In this document: piece by piece, positions 3,631 through 13,454 of the stretch
How the letters are laid out: each line of letters opens with the position of its first letter
How positions within the stretch are numbered: position 1 is the first letter of the stretch
Assembly (NCBI RefSeq): GCF_045037415.1
Contig: NZ_CP173438.1
Strand: one strand, 5' to 3'
Source: Escherichia coli
GTDB taxonomy: Bacteria; Pseudomonadota; Gammaproteobacteria; Enterobacterales; Enterobacteriaceae
Length of the DNA: 64,000 bases
Translations under genes and position numbers: made by a program
The notes under the pieces: generated by a model
The model's database searches: none
Told to the model about the DNA's origin: nothing
Seen by the model: only the letters and a program-made list of their open reading frames with translations

Positions 3631-4203
3631 ATGAGTGGATTACGTCCGGCATTATCGACATTTCTCTTTCTGTTATTGATTACTGGCGGCGTTTACCCGC
3701 TGCTGACCACCGCACTGGGGCAATGGTGGTTTCCCTGGCAGGCCAACGGTTCATTGATTCGTGAAGGTGATACGGTGCGCGGTTCGGCATTAATCGGGCA
3801 AAATTTTACCGGCAACGGCTATTTTCATGGTCGCCCGTCGGCAACAGCAGAAATGCCCTATAATCCACAGGCTTCTGGCGGGAGCAATCTGGCAGTCAGT
3901 AACCCGGTGCTGGATAAACAGATAGCCGCACGCGTTGCCGCATTACGGGCCGCTAACCCGGACGCCAGCACGAGCGTTCCGGTTGAACTGGTGACAGCGT
4001 CAGCAAGCGGGCTGGACAATAATATTACCCCGCAAGCGGCGGCCTGGCAGATCCCACGCGTGGCGAAAGCGCGTAATCTCAGCGTTGAACAGCTCACGCA
4101 ACTGATCGCAAAATACAGCCAACAACCGCTGGTGAACTATATCGGCCAGCCGGTCGTCAACGTTGTAGAACTCAATCTGGCGCTGGATAAGCTTGATGAA
4201 TAA
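3631..4203 (+). CDS. kdpC: Potassium-transporting ATPase subunit C
   Basis: ORF 3607..4203 trimmed to internal ATG ([11 protein letters not shown]...); RBS gagg upstream; 190 aa. Confidence 0.9.
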
Positions 4204-6880
4204 CGAACCCTTACGTCCCGACCCCGATCGTCTGCTGGAACAAACTGCCGCGCCGCATCGGGGGAAGCTGAAAGTTTTCTTCGGTGCCTGCGCAGGCGTC
4301 GGAAAGACCTGGGCGATGCTGGCAGAAGCCCAGCGACTGCGGGCGCAAGGGCTGGATATTGTGGTTGGCGTGGTAGAAACCCACGGGCGGAAAGATACCG
4401 CCGCAATGCTGGAAGGTCTGGCTGTTCTGCCGCTGAAACGCCAGGCGTACCGTGGGCGGCATATCAGCGAGTTTGATCTCGATGCCGCCCTCGCCCGCCG
4501 TCCGGCACTGATCTTAATGGACGAACTGGCGCACAGTAATGCGCCAGGTTCTCGTCATCCTAAACGCTGGCAGGACATCGAAGAGCTGCTGGAAGCAGGC
4601 ATTGATGTTTTCACTACCGTCAACGTTCAGCATCTGGAAAGCCTGAACGATGTGGTCAGTGGCGTAACCGGAATTCAGGTTCGGGAAACCGTGCCCGATC
4701 CTTTTTTCGATGCCGCCGACGACGTAGTACTGGTGGACTTGCCCCCGGACGATCTGCGCCAACGACTGAAAGAAGGCAAAGTCTATATTGCCGGGCAGGC
4801 AGAACGCGCCATTGAGCATTTTTTCCGCAAAGGCAATCTGATCGCCCTGCGCGAGCTGGCGCTACGCCGTACTGCCGATCGCGTAGATGAGCAAATGCGC
4901 GCGTGGCGGGGGCATCCTGGCGAAGAGAAAGTCTGGCACACGCGCGACGCGATCCTTTTATGCATCGGGCATAACACCGGCAGTGAGAAACTGGTCCGCG
5001 CGGCGGCGCGGCTGGCGTCGCGCCTGGGCAGTGTCTGGCACGCGGTGTATGTTGAAACCCCTGCCCTGCATCGCTTACCGGAGAAAAAACGTCGGGCAAT
5101 TCTCAGCGCCTTACGTCTGGCGCAGGAGTTGGGCGCGGAGACGGCAACACTTTCTGATCCAGCGGAAGAAAAAGCAGTAGTGCGTTATGCCCGTGAACAT
5201 AATCTCGGCAAGATTATTCTCGGTCGCCCGGCCTCGCGCCGCTGGTGGCGTCGGGAAACGTTTGCTGACCGGCTGGCGCGCATCGCCCCCGATCTCGATC
5301 AGGTACTGGTCGCGCTTGATGAACCACCCGCCCGCACGATTAATAACGCGCCGGATAGCCGCTCTTTTAAAGACAAGTGGCGGGTACAGATTCAGGGATG
5401 CGTGGTTGCCGCCGCGTTATGCGCCGTTATCACCTTAATTGCCATGCAGTGGCTGATGGCGTTTGATGCCGCCAACCTGGTGATGCTGTATCTGCTTGGC
5501 GTGGTTGTGGTGGCACTATTTTACGGACGCTGGCCTTCGGTGGTTGCGACCGTCATTAATGTGGTGAGTTTCGATCTCTTTTTTATCGCCCCACGCGGCA
5601 CGCTCGCCGTCTCTGATGTGCAATATCTGCTGACCTTCGCGGTGATGTTAACCGTCGGGCTGGTGATCGGGAACCTTACTGCTGGCGTGCGTTATCAGGC
5701 GCGGGTAGCCCGTTACCGCGAACAACGCACACGGCACTTATATGAAATGTCCAAAGCTCTGGCTGTGGGCCGTAGTTCGCAGGATATCGCCGCCACCAGC
5801 GAACAGTTTATTGCCTCCACGTTTCATGCCCGTAGCCAGGTGTTGCTGCCTGATGACAACGGTAAATTGCAGCCTTTAACACATCCGCAAGGAATGACGC
5901 CGTGGGACGATGCCATCGCGCAGTGGAGTTTTGATAAAGGCCTGCCTGCGGGCGCGGGCACCGACACGTTACCCGGTGTACCGTACCAGATTTTGCCGCT
6001 AAAAAGCGGCGAGAAAACCTACGGACTGGTGGTGGTGGAACCGGGGAATCTGCGCCAGTTGATGATCCCGGAACAGCAGCGCCTGCTGGAGACGTTTACG
6101 CTGTTAGTCGCCAATGCCCTTGAGCGACTGACACTGACCGCCAGCGAAGAACAGGCGCGGATGGCAAGCGAACGTGAACAGATCCGCAACGCCCTGCTGG
6201 CGGCGCTTTCGCATGATTTACGCACGCCGCTTACGGTGCTGTTCGGTCAGGCAGAAATCTTAACGCTCGATCTGGCAAGCGAAGGATCGCCCCACGCCCG
6301 CCAGGCCAGCGAGATTCGTCAGCATGTGCTGAACACCACCCGACTGGTGAATAATCTACTGGATATGGCGCGAATTCAGTCCGGCGGCTTTAATTTGAAG
6401 AAAGAGTGGTTAACGCTGGAAGAAGTGGTCGGCAGCGCGCTGCAAATGCTGGAACCGGGTTTATCGTCGCCCATCAATCTTTCTCTGCCAGAGCCGCTGA
6501 CCTTAATCCACGTTGACGGGCCACTCTTTGAACGGGTGCTGATTAACCTGCTGGAGAACGCGGTGAAATATGCGGGGGCGCAGGCCGAAATTGGTATCAA
6601 TGCCCACATCGAGGGCGAAAATCTACAACTGGATGTCTGGGATAACGGCCCCGGTCTTCCACCAGGCCAGGAGCAGACGATATTTGATAAGTTTGCTCGC
6701 GGGAATAAAGAGTCGGCGGTACCGGGTGTAGGGCTTGGGTTGGCAATTTGTCGGGCGATAGTGGATGTACACGGCGGCACCATTACCGCATTCAACCGAC
6801 CGGAAGGTGGTGCCTGTTTTCGTGTTACACTTCCCCAGCAAACAGCCCCTGAACTTGAAGAATTTCATGAGGATATGTGA
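4196..6880 (+). CDS. kdpD: Sensor histidine kinase KdpD
   Basis: 894 aa from ATG at 4196 (ORF begins at TTG 4193); N-terminal Walker-type KdpD domain, C-terminal HisKA/HATPase; start overlaps kdpC stop. Confidence 0.9.
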
Positions 6881-7554
6881 CAAACGTTCTGATTGTTGAA
6901 GATGAACAGGCTATTCGTCGCTTTCTGCGCACGGCGCTGGAGGGCGATGGGATGCGCGTCTTTGAGGCCGAAACGCTGCAACGCGGCTTGCTGGAAGCGG
7001 CTACCCGTAAGCCAGATTTGATTATTCTCGATCTCGGCCTGCCCGATGGTGATGGGATTGAGTTTATCCGCGACCTGCGCCAGTGGAGCGCGGTGCCGGT
7101 GATTGTGCTTTCCGCACGTAGCGAAGAGAGCGACAAAATCGCCGCGCTGGATGCCGGAGCGGATGATTATCTGAGTAAGCCGTTTGGCATTGGCGAATTG
7201 CAGGCCCGTCTGCGCGTCGCTTTACGTCGCCACTCCGCCACCGCCGCGCCCGATCCGCTGGTGAAATTTTCCGATGTTACCGTCGATTTAGCCGCCCGCG
7301 TTATCCATCGGGGCGAGGAAGAGGTGCATCTCACCCCGATTGAGTTCCGCCTGCTGGCAGTGTTGCTCAACAACGCCGGAAAAGTGCTCACCCAGCGCCA
7401 GTTACTCAATCAGGTGTGGGGACCAAACGCGGTCGAACACAGCCACTATTTGCGTATTTATATGGGGCATCTGCGACAAAAACTGGAGCAAGATCCCGCC
7501 CGCCCCCGCCATTTTATTACTGAAACCGGTATTGGGTATCGGTTTATGCCATGA
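6877..7554 (+). CDS. kdpE: Response regulator KdpE (OmpR family)
   Basis: 225 aa; receiver domain plus winged helix; GTG start overlapping kdpD stop. Confidence 0.95.
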   Translation: MTNVLIVEDEQAIRRFLRTALEGDGMRVFEAETLQRGLLEAATRKPDLIILDLGLPDGDGIEFIRDLRQWSAVPVIVLSARSEESDKIAALDAGADDYLSKPFGIGELQARLRVALRRHSATAAPDPLVKFSDVTVDLAARVIHRGEEEVHLTPIEFRLLAVLLNNAGKVLTQRQLLNQVWGPNAVEHSHYLRIYMGHLRQKLEQDPARPRHFITETGIGYRFMP

Positions 7555-7828
7555 ATTATTATTCAATAAATACGCTTAAATAATTATTAATTTATTATTA
7601 AACCTGCCCCGAAAATTATTATTTGGCAGGTTTAATTTCTTAATGAAAATACAACCCACAAAATTGCAACATTTAAACAACAAAACAGCATCTAATATGG
7701 CGCTATTCATCATTAATGATTTATTATTTGGGATATGATCGTTTTTTGTTGATCTTCTTCACAGATTATAGCCATTTCATGGATAGAATAACCCTACCTT
7801 CAACTGACACAGAAAAAGGTAAAGGTAA

Positions 7829-7933
7829 ATGGAAAATAATAACCGCTTAATGCCTCATATAAGGCGGACAACCCATATCATGAAGTTTGCCCATCGTAAT
7901 AGTTTTGACTTTCATTTTTTTAATGCCCGCTAG
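7829..7933 (+). CDS. speFL: speF leader peptide (ornithine-sensing arrest peptide), 34 codons
   Basis: atg at 7829 translates to MENNNRLMPHIRRTTHIMKFAHRNSFDFHFFNAR then TAG; below the ORF-track size cutoff; sits ~300 nt upstream of speF. Confidence 0.8.
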   Translation: MENNNRLMPHIRRTTHIMKFAHRNSFDFHFFNAR

Positions 7934-8242
7934 TCTTCTGACTAAAGGGCACCCCAGCGTACAGGTCTCCCTGACTTTAAGCATTACAGGTTAATACCTG
8001 TATCCCTCGGTGCTCATATACTGCTAACCCTTTTAAACTCTAAATAATTCGAGTCGCAGCACATGCAACTTGAAGTATGACGAGTATAGCCAGTTACCGG
8101 GCTGGTCTGGGTTATTGCATCTGCAAAAAGCAAACTACTGATTTATTTATCAGCGGTGGGGTTTTGCTTTTTTCCGGCGTGATCAATTTCTCCTTTGAGA
8201 AATTGAGGACCTGCTATTACCTGAAATAAAGAGATGAACAAA

Positions 8243-10441
8243 ATGTCAGAATTAAAAATTGCCGTTAGCCGTTCTTGCCCGGATTGTTTTTCCACTCATC
8301 GTGAATGCGTGAATATTGACAAAAGTAATTATATTGACGTTGCCGCCATTATTTTATCAGTCAATGATGTTGAACATGGAAAACTCGATGAAATAGACGC
8401 TACTGGCTATGGCATTCCTGTTTTTATTGCAACGGAAAATGAAGAACGTGTACCAGCAGAATATCTGCCACGTATTTCTGGTGTCTTCGAGCATTGCGAA
8501 TCACGGAAAGAGTTTTATGGACGTCAGTTAGAAACCGCTGCCAGCCATTATGAAACGCAACTGCGCCCGCCCTTCTTCCGCGCACTGGTCGATTATGTCA
8601 ATCAGGGCAATAGCGCTTTTGACTGCCCGGGTCATCAGGGAGGTGAGTTTTTCCGTCGCCATCCGGCAGGCAATCAGTTCGTGGAATATTTTGGCGAAAT
8701 GCTCTTCCGCTCCGACTTGTGTAATGCCGACGTTGCAATGGGCGATCTACTGATTCATGAAGGTGCGCCATGCATTGCACAGCAACATGCGGCTAAAGTG
8801 TTTAATGCCGATAAAACGTACTTTGTTTTAAACGGCACATCCTCCTCCAACAAAGTGGTTTTAAACGCCCTGCTGACACCGGGTGATCTGGTGCTGTTTG
8901 ACCGTAATAACCATAAGTCTAACCACCACGGAGCGTTGCTACAGGCTGGTGCAACACCGGTTTATCTGGAAACAGCACGTAACCCGTATGGTTTTATCGG
9001 TGGCATTGATGCGCACTGCTTCGAAGAAAGTTATCTGCGTGAACTGATTACAGAAGTTGCACCGCAACGGGCAAAAGAGGCGCGTCCGTTCCGCCTCGCT
9101 GTGATTCAGTTAGGCACCTACGACGGTACTATTTATAACGCCCGCCAGGTGGTGGATAAAATCGGCCATCTGTGTGACTACATCCTGTTTGACTCCGCAT
9201 GGGTCGGCTATGAACAGTTTATTCCGATGATGGCGGACTGTTCGCCGCTGCTACTGGAGCTTAATGAGAACGATCCGGGTATTCTGGTTACGCAATCTGT
9301 GCATAAACAACAGGCTGGTTTTTCTCAGACTTCACAAATTCATAAAAAAGACAGCCATATCAAAGGGCAACAGCGTTATGTACCGCACAAACGCATGAAC
9401 AACGCCTTTATGATGCACGCCTCCACCAGCCCGTTCTATCCGCTGTTTGCCGCACTGGATATCAACGCCAAAATGCATGAAGGTGTCAGCGGTCGTAATA
9501 TGTGGATGGATTGTGTGGTTAACGGTATTAATGCCCGCAAATTGATCCTCGATAACTGCCAGCACATTCGCCCGTTCGTTCCTGAACTGGTGGATGGTAA
9601 ACCCTGGCAGTCGTATGAAACAGCGCAAATTGCGGTTGATCTGCGCTTCTTTAAATTTGTACCCGGTGAGCACTGGCATTCTTTTGAAGGCTACGCAGAG
9701 AACCAATACTTTGTCGATCCGTGCAAACTGTTGCTGACAACTCCAGGTATTGATGCACGTAACGGCGAATATGAAGCGTTCGGTGTACCCGCAACGATTC
9801 TTGCTAACTTCCTGCGCGAAAATGGCGTAGTGCCGGAAAAATGCGATCTTAACTCCATCCTCTTCCTGCTGACTCCGGCAGAAGATATGGCCAAACTGCA
9901 GCAACTTGTTGCCCTGCTGGTACGCTTCGAAAAACTACTGGAAGCTGATGCGCCTCTGGCGGAAGTACTGCCTTCCATCTACAAACAGCATGAAGAGCGC
10001 TACGCCGGTTATACCCTGCGTCAGTTGTGCCAGGAAATGCATGATTTGTATGCCCGTCACAACGTGAAACAACTGCAAAAAGAGATGTTCCGTAAGGAAC
10101 ACTTCCCTCGCGTCAGCATGAATCCGCAAGAAGCCAACTACGCCTACTTACGCGGTGAAGTGGAGCTGGTTCGTCTGCCGGATGCAGAAGGCCGTATCGC
10201 TGCCGAAGGTGCGCTTCCTTATCCTCCGGGTGTGCTGTGTGTTGTTCCTGGTGAAATCTGGGGTGGTGCTGTTCTGCGTTACTTCAGCGCTCTGGAAGAA
10301 GGCATCAACCTGCTGCCAGGTTTTGCACCGGAGCTGCAGGGTGTCTATATCGAAGAACATGATGGTCGTAAGCAAGTTTGGTGCTATGTCATCAAGCCTC
10401 GTGATGCGCAAAGCGCCCTGTTGAAAGGGGAAAAATTATGA
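8243..10441 (+). CDS. speF: Inducible ornithine decarboxylase
   Basis: ORF 8234..10441; second in-frame ATG at 8243 gives 732 aa, the length I recall for SpeF; PLP-dependent fold I decarboxylase; followed by potE. Confidence 0.9.
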   Translation: MSELKIAVSRSCPDCFSTHRECVNIDKSNYIDVAAIILSVNDVEHGKLDEIDATGYGIPVFIATENEERVPAEYLPRISGVFEHCESRKEFYGRQLETAASHYETQLRPPFFRALVDYVNQGNSAFDCPGHQGGEFFRRHPAGNQFVEYFGEMLFRSDLCNADVAMGDLLIHEGAPCIAQQHAAKVFNADKTYFVLNGTSSSNKVVLNALLTPGDLVLFDRNNHKSNHHGALLQAGATPVYLETARNPYGFIGGIDAHCFEESYLRELITEVAPQRAKEARPFRLAVIQLGTYDGTIYNARQVVDKIGHLCDYILFDSAWVGYEQFIPMMADCSPLLLELNENDPGILVTQSVHKQQAGFSQTSQIHKKDSHIKGQQRYVPHKRMNNAFMMHASTSPFYPLFAALDINAKMHEGVSGRNMWMDCVVNGINARKLILDNCQHIRPFVPELVDGKPWQSYETAQIAVDLRFFKFVPGEHWHSFEGYAENQYFVDPCKLLLTTPGIDARNGEYEAFGVPATILANFLRENGVVPEKCDLNSILFLLTPAEDMAKLQQLVALLVRFEKLLEADAPLAEVLPSIYKQHEERYAGYTLRQLCQEMHDLYARHNVKQLQKEMFRKEHFPRVSMNPQEANYAYLRGEVELVRLPDAEGRIAAEGALPYPPGVLCVVPGEIWGGAVLRYFSALEEGINLLPGFAPELQGVYIEEHDGRKQVWCYVIKPRDAQSALLKGEKL

Positions 10442-11757
10442 GTCAGGCGAAATCGAACAAAATGGGTGTCGTTCAGTTAACCATACTGACGATGGTCAAC
10501 ATGATGGGCTCCGGTATCATCATGCTGCCGACAAAGCTTGCCGAAGTCGGGACAATCTCAATTATCTCCTGGCTGGTGACAGCCGTAGGCTCAATGGCAC
10601 TGGCATGGGCATTCGCAAAATGCGGTATGTTCAGCCGTAAATCAGGAGGTATGGGCGGTTATGCCGAGTATGCTTTCGGTAAATCCGGTAACTTTATGGC
10701 GAACTATACCTACGGCGTCTCGCTGCTGATTGCTAACGTCGCGATTGCTATTTCGGCGGTTGGTTACGGCACCGAACTGCTCGGCGCGAGTTTGTCGCCA
10801 GTGCAGATTGGTCTTGCGACCATCGGGGTGCTGTGGATTTGTACCGTGGCTAACTTTGGTGGTGCGCGCATTACCGGGCAAATCAGTAGCATTACCGTGT
10901 GGGGGGTCATTATTCCGGTGGTAGGCCTGTGCATTATCGGCTGGTTCTGGTTTAGCCCGACGCTTTACGTTGATTCCTGGAATCCGCATCATGCACCCTT
11001 CTTCAGTGCGGTAGGTTCTTCCATCGCTATGACGCTGTGGGCTTTTCTTGGTCTGGAGTCTGCGTGTGCGAATACTGATGTAGTGGAAAACCCGGAACGT
11101 AATGTGCCAATCGCGGTACTCGGCGGTACGTTAGGTGCGGCGGTGATTTATATCGTCTCCACCAACGTGATTGCCGGGATTGTGCCAAATATGGAGCTGG
11201 CAAATTCAACGGCACCATTTGGTCTGGCCTTCGCGCAGATGTTCACGCCGGAAGTGGGTAAAGTCATTATGGCGCTGATGGTGATGTCCTGCTGCGGTTC
11301 GCTGCTTGGCTGGCAGTTCACCATTGCCCAGGTGTTTAAATCTTCATCTGATGAAGGCTACTTCCCTAAAATTTTCTCCCGTGTAACCAAAGTGGATGCA
11401 CCGGTGCAGGGAATGTTGACCATTGTGATTATCCAGAGCGGGTTGGCGCTGATGACGATTAGCCCGTCGCTAAACAGTCAGTTCAACGTGCTGGTTAACC
11501 TGGCCGTGGTGACTAATATCATTCCGTATATTCTGTCAATGGCGGCATTAGTCATTATTCAGAAGGTCGCTAATGTGCCCCCCTCAAAAGCGAAAGTTGC
11601 AAACTTTGTTGCTTTTGTTGGCGCGATGTACAGCTTTTATGCGCTGTACTCATCCGGGGAAGAAGCCATGCTATACGGTTCCATCGTGACCTTCCTCGGT
11701 TGGACACTGTATGGTCTGGTCTCACCACGCTTTGAACTGAAAAATAAACACGGTTAA
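10438..11757 (+). CDS. potE: Putrescine-ornithine antiporter
   Basis: 439 aa APC-family permease; start overlaps speF stop (ATGA). Confidence 0.95.
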   Translation: MSQAKSNKMGVVQLTILTMVNMMGSGIIMLPTKLAEVGTISIISWLVTAVGSMALAWAFAKCGMFSRKSGGMGGYAEYAFGKSGNFMANYTYGVSLLIANVAIAISAVGYGTELLGASLSPVQIGLATIGVLWICTVANFGGARITGQISSITVWGVIIPVVGLCIIGWFWFSPTLYVDSWNPHHAPFFSAVGSSIAMTLWAFLGLESACANTDVVENPERNVPIAVLGGTLGAAVIYIVSTNVIAGIVPNMELANSTAPFGLAFAQMFTPEVGKVIMALMVMSCCGSLLGWQFTIAQVFKSSSDEGYFPKIFSRVTKVDAPVQGMLTIVIIQSGLALMTISPSLNSQFNVLVNLAVVTNIIPYILSMAALVIIQKVANVPPSKAKVANFVAFVGAMYSFYALYSSGEEAMLYGSIVTFLGWTLYGLVSPRFELKNKHG

Positions 11758-11770
11758 TTAAGCAAAGCAA

Positions 11771-11800
11771 AAAAGGGCGATCTTCCGACCGCCCTTTTTC
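11771..11800. terminator. Bidirectional intrinsic terminator between potE and pgm
   Basis: A-run, stem gggcg...cgccc, then T-run (aaaagggcgatcttccgaccgcccttttt). Confidence 0.6.
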
Positions 11801-11813
11801 TTATTTGATATGT

Positions 11814-13454
11814 TTACGCGTTTTTCAGAACTTCGCTAACAATTTCAACCGCTTCTTTCTCAATCTGCTTGCGATGTTCTTCACCAAGGAAGCTTTCGCA
11901 GTAGATCTTATATGCGTCTTCCGTGCCTGACGGACGCGCGGCGAACCAGCCGTTGTCAGTCATCACTTTCAGACCGCCGATAGAAGCGCCATTACCCGGT
12001 GCCGCCGTCAGACGCGCGGTGATCGGGTCACCTGCCAGGGTGCTGGCGCTCACCATTTCCGGAGACAGCTTAGACAACGCCGCTTTTTGTGCGGAAGTCG
12101 CTGCTGCCTGCAAACGGTTATAGCTCGGCGCACCAAAGCGTTTTGCCAGTTCGTTATAGTGTTCCTGCGGGTTCTTACCGGTGACAGCGGTGATTTCCGC
12201 CGCCAGCAGACACATAATGATGCCGTCTTTATCGGTGGACCACGGCGTGCCGTCGAAACGCAGGAAGGAAGCCCCTGCGCTCTCTTCGCCGCCAAAGCCG
12301 AAGCTGCCGTCGAACAGACCATCAACAAACCATTTGAAACCTACCGGGACTTCTACCAGCTTACGGCCCAAGTCATTGACCACACGGTCGATCATCGCAG
12401 ATGAAACCAGCGTTTTACCGACAGCAACATCTTTGCCCCACTGCGGACGATGCTGGAACAGGTAATTGATCGCCACCGCCAGGTAGTGGTTCGGATTCAT
12501 CAAACCTGCCGGAGTGACGATACCGTGACGGTCATAATCCGGGTCGTTAGCAAACGCCAGATCGAACTTATCACGCAGTGCCAGCAGGCCCGCCATCGCA
12601 CACTCGGAGGAGCAGTCCATACGGATCGCGCCGTCTTTATCAAGGTGCATAAAGCGGAAGGTTTGATCGACCTGATCGTTAACAATAGTCAGGTTGAGGT
12701 TGTAATACTCGCCAATACGCTTCCAGTATTCGATACCGGAACCGCCCAGCGGATCAACGCCAAGCGTCAGGCCCGCTTTCTGAATCGCCGCCATATCAAC
12801 GATATCGGCCAGCCCTTCCACAAACGGCTGCACCAGATCCTGCTCTTTCACATGACCGGATGCCATCGCTTCGTCGAGGGAGATACGCTTCACGCCTTTC
12901 AGGCCATCAGCCAGCAGTGCGTTTGCTCTGTCTTCCACCACTTTAGTGACGTTGGTATCAGCCGGGCCACCATTTGGCGGATTGTACTTGATACCACCAT
13001 CTTCCGGCGGGTTATGGGACGGTGTAATCACGATACCGTCTGCCAGCGGGCCACCTTTTTTATTGTGAACCAGAATGGCATTGGAAATGGCAGGTGTCGG
13101 AGTGAAGCCATTGTTTTCCTGCACAATGACATCAACGCCGTTCGCTGCCAGCACTTCCAGTACGGAAATGAACGCAGGCTCGGACAGGGCGTGAGTATCT
13201 TTACCCACATAGCAAGGGCCAGTGATGCCGTTTTTCGCACGTTCTTCAGCAATTGCCTGAGCGATCGCCAGAATGTGCGGCTCGTTAAAGCTGTGGCGCG
13301 CTGCACTGCCACGGTGACCGGAAGTACCGAATTTCACCGCGTGCTCCGCATTCCCTGCTTCTGGTTTCAGTACATAATATTGCGCCGTCAGTTGGGCGAC
13401 GTTAATCAAATCACTCTGTTGTGCAGGTTGGCCTGCACGATTGTGGATTGCCAT
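11814..13454 (-). CDS. pgm: Phosphoglucomutase
   Basis: ORF 11814..13505 trimmed to internal ATG giving [10 protein letters not shown]..., 546 aa; phosphohexomutase motifs (TSGHRG). Confidence 0.9.

Follow-up and report, generated by a model that had tools for sequence, protein, structure and literature searches.

The leader peptide gene speFL upstream of speF-potE in Escherichia coli: an already annotated gene in the more frequent of two diverged leader haplotypes

In the 64,000-nucleotide stretch of Escherichia coli DNA that was analyzed here (hereafter, the window), the genes kdpD (4193-6880), kdpE (6877-7554), speFL, speF and potE follow one another, all on the + strand. The speFL coding sequence, which was assigned by homology, a Pfam match, the RefSeq annotation of identical DNA and codon entropy, occupies positions 7829-7933 (+) and consists of 34 codons that start with ATG and are followed by a TAG stop codon. 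The sequence and the ORF listing give the same translation, MENNNRLMPHIRRTTHIMKFAHRNSFDFHFFNAR, and the ORF is exactly the one that had been quoted in the first-pass annotation of this DNA. The regulated genes are speF, encoding the inducible ornithine decarboxylase (8243-10441, +; RefSeq on identical DNA and the ORF), and potE, encoding the putrescine-ornithine antiporter (10438-11757, +; the ORF and RefSeq annotation). The speFL stop codon is separated from the conserved speF ATG at 8243 by 309 nt, in agreement with the distance of about 300 nt given earlier. The ATG at 8234 was considered as the speF start and rejected because it is out of frame in K-12 and differs from the start in RefSeq.

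Given that 90 ORFs of at least 20 aa overlap the region 6500-13000, the length of 34 codons alone is uninformative, and the case for this gene rests on homology and conservation. Comparison of the peptide with all PDB chains using phmmer yielded a single match at E <= 1, namely, the SpeFL chain of 6TBV/6TC3, with an E-value of 1.7e-18 and 32 of the 34 residues identical. The search of Pfam-A with the same peptide retrieved PF10940, "Leader peptide SpeFL" (E 2.2e-6, score 27.8). The region 7600-8300 is 100% identical to the DNA of E. coli strain 4/1-1, in which this ORF bears the RefSeq annotation speFL (WP_001312672.1). The K-12 gene, b4803, and its product (6TBV/6TC3; PF10940; Herrero del Valle et al., 10.1101/604074) represent the same gene in the same locus, with 34 codons and a TAG stop, and share with the window the HIRRXXH motif, the Phe-rich effector domain, the AGG-CGG pair at codons 12-13, the hairpin at the stop codon, the pause motif and the downstream speF-potE genes. 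The difference is that the window encodes N5 instead of S5 and L7 instead of T7, so that the previously claimed match to the published peptide is borne out by the alignment, at 32 of 34 positions, but does not amount to identity with the K-12 sequence.

Judged by its sequence, the ORF at 7829-7933 is speFL itself, a gene that has already been characterized and annotated; the identification is correct but is not a discovery. The further suggestion that automated gene calling would miss this ORF does not hold: speFL is present in RefSeq/PGAP annotation, in K-12 as b4803, on at least 1000 contigs in public gene calls (where the exact peptide is named either 'leader peptide SpeFL' or 'DUF2618 domain-containing protein'), in Pfam as a family, and in EcoCyc, which includes speFL among its leader peptides (PMC7815308). 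The gene escapes only length-filtered ORF lists, such as those with a 60-aa cut-off. Scanning the peptide against NCBIfam matched no family, so PGAP must name speFL by another route, and we did not count this result against the identification. Thus, speFL is a real regulatory gene that falls below common ORF-length cut-offs but is already included in RefSeq/PGAP, Pfam and EcoCyc, and the finding as originally stated adds nothing new to biology; its modest value lies in the by-products of the analysis.

The peptide encoded in the window retains all residues that have been found to be important experimentally, namely, H10, I11, R12, R13, H16, F20, F26, F28, F30 and F31. Codons 10-16 (7856-7876, +) encode HIRRTTH, a version of the ornithine-recognition (sensor) motif HIRRXXH; mutations of the residues of this motif abolish the ornithine-dependent arrest (bioRxiv 10.1101/604074). 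Within this motif, R12 and R13 are encoded by the rare Arg codons AGG-CGG (7862-7867, +), to which two effects have been attributed, that is, slowing of the trailing ribosomes resulting in exposure of rut (10.1101/604074) and an arginine-responsive pause (PMC6386406). Codons 20-31 (7886-7921, +) comprise the C-terminal effector domain, the roles of which are known from cryo-EM and mutagenesis (10.1101/604074); all five effector Phe residues (F20, F26, F28, F30 and F31) are present in the window peptide, and Arg34 directly precedes the TAG.

We compared, codon by codon, the speFL genes of 52 species with the canonical 34-codon form (the window, K-12 and L004-L081). The residues M1, E2, N3, N4, H10, I11, R12, R13, H16, M18, R23, F26 and F28 are invariant in all 52 species. 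Conservation of the C-terminal motif, proposed in the first-pass annotation as a check, is thereby apparent for F26 and F28, and extends to F31 (50 of 52 species) and, less completely, to F30 (35 of 52). The commonest codons for R12 and R13 are those found in the window, AGG in 40 species and CGG in 32. Position 7 accommodates 11 different residues across the 52 species, and position 5 alternates between N and S; hence, the N5 and L7 substitutions fall at freely varying sites. The entropies at codon positions 1, 2 and 3 are 0.40, 0.30 and 0.97, respectively, compared with ~1.6 in the flanks (40 nt before and 60 nt after the ORF), so that the third positions are 2.4-3.2 times as variable as the first two, and the register of the start and stop codons and the length of 34 codons are fixed in all 52 species. 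Between the window and K-12, there are 12 synonymous and 2 non-synonymous codon differences. Clearly, speFL evolves as a coding sequence under purifying selection. The stop codon of the 52 canonical genes is TAG in 32 and TAA in 20, with no TGA; all three stop codons are stated to occur across species (10.1101/604074), and the stop codon of Salmonella Typhimurium is given as UGA in a figure legend (PMC6386406).

The DNA upstream of 80 loci encoding relatives of SpeF, with one genome per species, was scanned without the use of annotation. A SpeFL-like frame was found upstream of 68 of the 69 speF loci that are linked to potE vs none of the 5 speF-like genes without potE; the observed scores were 43-183, and the maximum for the null set, consisting of reverse-complemented and shuffled upstream DNA, was 37. 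Lack of conservation in related genomes, which had been named as the observation that would speak against the ORF, is thus not what we found. In the sole potE-linked exception (L072), the C-terminal half of a Shewanella-type peptide remains. Searching the proteins of the representative genomes with phmmer gave 14 matches only, because short ORFs are thinly represented there. Speaking of the genes that lack the leader, the speF-like genes of L034, L067, L076, L082 and L083 (70-81% identity) lack both a downstream potE and an upstream SpeFL-like ORF, and in L034 (Pseudocitrobacter faecalis), kdpE directly adjoins the speF-like gene.

The preprint on SpeFL describes this leader in gammaproteobacteria only (10.1101/604074). 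We find that SpeFL-like leaders reach betaproteobacterial speF-potE operons: such ORFs are present in L065, L066, L070, L071, L074, L079 and L080, which represent Sutterella and Burkholderiaceae MAG sequences, ~165-225 nt upstream of the speF-like gene, with the core ..V[IT]RR[IV]RHI[MT]CF.CRSCFS..RF, no His10 and a different N-terminus. Several divergent leaders were detected as well. In L044:2277-2402 (Yersinia proxima) and in P0013, HIQR replaces the strictly conserved HIRR, and the L044 leader is only 98 nt away from speF; given that R12 substitutions abolish arrest in E. coli (10.1101/604074), this variant, as judged by its sequence, may be inactive or retuned. Four rare SpeFL variants in public protein calls (P0001, P0002, P0007 and P0014) have frameshifted or deleted C-termini and are 45-54 aa long (e.g., ...FHFFNAASLLTKGHPNVQ...); these are either natural loss-of-arrest mutants or sequencing errors.

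The leader RNA contains a series of elements that correspond to those described for K-12 and Salmonella. Upstream of speFL, the purine-rich region AAAGGTAAAGG (7815-7825, +), with AGG located 3 and 9 nt before the ATG, is the putative Shine-Dalgarno region of this gene. The transcription start can be placed ~31 nt upstream of 7829 by analogy with Salmonella, whose mRNA has the orf34 AUG at +32 (PMC6386406); the putative promoter deduced from the Salmonella one would comprise the -10 element TAGAAT (7784-7789) and the start at ~7796-7798 (promoter region 7784-7798, +). The block TGGATAGAAT is retained between the window and K-12, with the rest of the intergenic region being ~53% identical. A scan with the sigma-70 consensus detected no promoter at the position expected for speFL, suggesting that the -35 element is poor or that the promoter depends on an activator.

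The last speFL codons and the TAG are covered by a hairpin (7924-7951, +; -15.8 kcal/mol) that is the predicted counterpart of the RNA polymerase pause hairpin described at the speFL stop codon (10.1101/604074). In a pair count on 29 Enterobacteriaceae (28 distinct sequences), 88% of the cells of this hairpin are paired, vs 20-38% when the partners are slid. Double changes are found in 2 pairs; covariation is limited because one of the arms is constrained by the coding function. RNAalifold returned no structure for a 24-genus alignment of the stop-codon region because the sequence past the stop is not alignable outside Enterobacteriaceae. The hairpin is followed by GGCACCCCAGCG (7948-7959, +), which fits the pattern of the consensus pause element, G-11 G-10 ... 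Y-1 G+1, or GGN8YG (10.1101/604074). A premature 3' end is predicted at C7958; the Rho-terminated transcript of Salmonella ends 21 nt past the stop codon (PMC6386406). Between 7836 and 8036, C accounts for 25-35% of the bases vs 12-25% for G, a modest C excess, and the base composition delineates no rut site. Scanning of the + strand between 7500 and 8300 revealed no terminator-like site, and Ben-Zvi et al. likewise found no intrinsic terminator in Salmonella (PMC6386406), so the speFL leader is not a classical terminator/antiterminator attenuator of the trpL/hisL type.

When the entire leader is folded, the predicted minimum free energy structure contains a long-range helix between the 3' part of speFL (7900-7922, +) and the segment 8227-8254 (+), which covers the Shine-Dalgarno sequence AAAGAG (8228-8233) and the AUG (8243-8245) of speF. 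The same helix is predicted in the K-12, E. albertii, Raoultella, Citrobacter, Salmonella and Enterobacter leaders; validation by compensatory mutations comes from Salmonella only (PMC6386406). The 3' module of the leader also contains the hairpin CAAUUUCUC-CUUU-GAGAAAUUG (8183-8206, +), which was identified by folding and is conserved across genera, with changes on both arms in the spacer alignment (e.g., in L030 and L013). No Rfam family matched 7400-8400 at the gathering score, and the sub-threshold matches in this region are at chance level.

Taken together, the sequence, the motifs, the rare codons, the synteny, the coding-type evolution and the RNA elements support the proposal that this ORF is speFL, encoding the ornithine-sensing arrest peptide that would control speF-potE. 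We consider it highly probable (about 0.95) that, by homology to the published K-12 and Salmonella mechanism, speFL is a cis-acting leader peptide gene that couples the transcription and translation of speF-potE to ornithine. Sequence analysis established the identity of the gene, its conservation and its selection as a coding sequence, as well as, in the form of computational predictions and pattern matches, the stop-codon hairpin, the pause motif and the long-range helix, whereas ribosome stalling, Rho termination and induction in this allele are inferred from the better-studied alleles; ornithine-dependent arrest and Rho-dependent attenuation have been shown for the K-12 and Salmonella alleles only (10.1101/604074, PMC6386406).

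Applied to the window, the published models of ornithine capture, arrest and Rho masking (10.1101/604074) and of orf34 translation, helix opening and the arginine/RNase G layer (PMC6386406) predict the following course of events. RNA polymerase would transcribe speFL and pause at the stop-codon hairpin (7924-7951), which the lead ribosome would then melt. At low ornithine, this ribosome would terminate at the TAG and depart, Rho would load on the exposed leader RNA, and transcription would end at ~7954-7958; the freed 3' part of speFL (7900-7922) would pair with the region of the speF Shine-Dalgarno sequence and AUG (8227-8254). At high ornithine, one ornithine molecule would be trapped by the HIRRTTH loop and the rRNA of the exit tunnel, and the Phe-rich C-terminal domain would compact and block the action of the release factor with Arg34 in the P site; the stalled and queued ribosomes would mask the Rho entry site and hold the inhibitory helix open, such that speF and potE would be produced. 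The rare AGG-CGG codons at positions 12-13 would tune the spacing of the ribosomes and add an arginine-responsive layer.

Two other systems are relevant for comparison. In Salmonella Typhimurium, the ortholog of this leader ORF is orf34 (Ben-Zvi et al. 2019, PMC6386406), the AUG of which lies ~32 nt past the transcription start. Rho-dependent termination takes place just past orf34, and the helix between the 3' part of the ORF and the speF RBS is predicted in the window, too. The Salmonella leader differs from the window in the length of the spacer, ~379 nt (378 nt in S. enterica arizonae, L011), with a larger variable portion, or ring, of the leader, and in residue 19, which is M in Salmonella and K in the window. 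The tryptophan-responsive TnaC leader of tnaCAB is analogous in that a small molecule blocks release at the leader stop codon, which masks the Rho entry site and allows transcription of the downstream operon (10.1101/604074), but the sequence and the ligand are unrelated, and the PDB search at E <= 1 matched SpeFL alone.

An explanation that dispenses with ornithine sensing, in line with the original orf34 model taken as the sole mechanism, is that only translation matters, with ribosome transit paced by the rare Arg codons and arginine, rather than ornithine, being the signal. There are experimental grounds for this interpretation: prevention of Rho termination and opening of the helix that sequesters the RBS both require translation of orf34, and the Arg codons mediate the effect of arginine through RNase G (PMC6386406). 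The AGG-CGG pair is also kept in the window and in most species. We nevertheless regard transit alone as an improbable account because the amino acid conservation extends well beyond codons 12-13 and synonymous changes dominate, which would be unexpected if only transit counted, and because cryo-EM and point mutants demonstrate peptide-specific ornithine capture and arrest (10.1101/604074). The transit/arginine and ornithine-arrest models do not truly compete but describe layers of a single system.

The ornithine-responsive leader, which remains the preferred reading, is represented in E. coli by two strongly diverged haplotypes. The window and K-12 are 97-99% identical in kdpD, kdpE and potE vs 53-87% over ~7400-9000 (~1.6 kb), a block that spans the 3' end of kdpE, the promoter region, speFL, the leader and the first ~600-800 nt of speF; the leader itself is only ~85% identical. 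The window-type leader is present in 3317 of 5426 complete E. coli genomes (~61%, at no less than 80% coverage), and the K-12 type in 1700 (~31%). About 400 of the 5426 genomes have neither leader type, and other peptide variants exist as well (e.g., MENNNRKMPHIRRVTH..., on 593 contigs). In the E. coli strain ET82 (H51; NZ_CP101005.1, 3217436-3218833), an IS1 element between kdpE and speF breaks a K-12-type leader, and speFL is unannotated. Structural and genetic studies of SpeFL have used the minority leader allele of E. coli.

Over the first 600 nt of speF, identity to E. albertii is higher for the window type (88%) than for the K-12 type (83%). The K-12 type lies at about the same distance from each of the 12 species that were compared, and no donor of the K-12-type block was seen among them. 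These distances suggest that the allele resident in Escherichia is the window type, and that the K-12 type was imported long ago or is one side of an ancient polymorphism. It is conceivable, although in our view rather unlikely, that the two haplotypes constitute a maintained regulatory polymorphism, with different ornithine, arginine or acid set-points for the production of putrescine. Should this be the case, all the knowledge obtained with K-12 would describe a minority variant.

The two haplotypes also differ in the length of the spacer between speFL and speF, which is 309 nt in the window vs 257 nt in K-12 because of a 51-nt insert (8032-8082, +; delineated as an alignment gap relative to K-12) that lies in the variable ring of the leader and forms its own hairpin (fold z = -2.9). 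The insert resembles ERIC/IRU repeats in being palindromic, intergenic, transcribed and multi-copy; in an E. coli genome, the median number of sites occupied by its family is 7. The two termini of the insert match those of a full ERIC copy in the K-12 dxs-yajO spacer (22/23 and 36/36), a copy of ~126 nt with the ERIC2 primer site at the center (21/22). The central ~76-77 nt, including the ERIC1R/ERIC2 primer core, are lacking in the window. Because the ends match and the core is absent, the insert is an internally deleted ERIC remnant and not a full ERIC. A sub-threshold Rfam match to isrH (24 bits vs a gathering score of 45) overlaps this remnant. A full-text literature search for ERIC together with speF returned no relevant paper.

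A diverged insert is present at the same site in E. albertii and in the species representative 'E. coli E69'. In the leaders of Citrobacter and Kluyvera (L006:2121-2500, L007:2120-2500 and L018:2133-2500), a full-length ERIC-like element of ~125 nt occupies a different site in the ring, indicating independent ERIC insertions into the same leader; in Citrobacter (L006 and L007), this element sits in the loop of a CAGGC...GCCTG hairpin. The Salmonella ring is ~120 nt longer. The ring of the leader has thus repeatedly taken ERIC insertions that left the conserved modules undisturbed, and because it evidently tolerates insertions, the remnant in the window can be expected, from these sequence comparisons, to be neutral or nearly so.

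The divergence from K-12 (53-87% identity over ~7400-9000) and the 51-nt insert could be taken to mean that the window allele, with its N5 and L7 residues, divergent leader and ERIC remnant, is functionally altered or dead, such that speF-potE would be regulated differently from K-12. ERIC hairpins in transcripts reportedly affect mRNA stability, according to work on Yersinia. Several observations render such an alteration even less probable than transit alone. The window type is the majority allele (3317 of 5426 genomes vs 1700), and an insert is found in E. albertii at the same site. Among species, positions 5 and 7 are free to vary, and all the functional residues and RNA elements that were tested are retained. 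Furthermore, removing 8032-8082 in silico leaves the predicted long-range helix unchanged. Other genera accommodate a full ERIC or ~120 additional nt in the ring; one of them is Salmonella, in which the system has been shown to work (PMC6386406).

Finally, the possibility that speFL is a chance ORF in a conserved non-coding leader, with the conservation reflecting RNA structure or a Rho site, draws on the abundance of ORFs (the 90 of at least 20 aa in 6.5 kb) and on the pairing of part of speFL with the speF RBS region, but is effectively refuted by the excess of third-position variability and the fixed register and length in 52 species, by the homology to a peptide seen within the ribosome tunnel (6TBV/6TC3), and by the published double-frameshift control, which abolishes arrest (10.1101/604074).

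The DNA between kdpE and speFL contains additional features. An ORF of 44 aa (7716-7850, +) extends over the speFL promoter and start. RefSeq labels it 'hypothetical protein' (WP_001295874.1), many public records call it 'TonB-dependent receptor', and NCBIfam has no match for it. We considered this ORF as a second upstream peptide and rejected it given that stop codons interrupt it in the homologous K-12 DNA and that the cross-genus similarity is in a different frame relative to speFL, which points to conservation of the promoter DNA. These comparisons make the 44-aa ORF a probable false gene call in conserved promoter DNA. Just past kdpE, at 7568-7641, there is a sub-threshold Rfam match to STnc370 (26.9 bits vs a gathering score of 54, E 0.39). 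AAACCTGCC...GGCAGGTTT and the run of T's behind it resemble a terminator, putatively that of the kdp operon.
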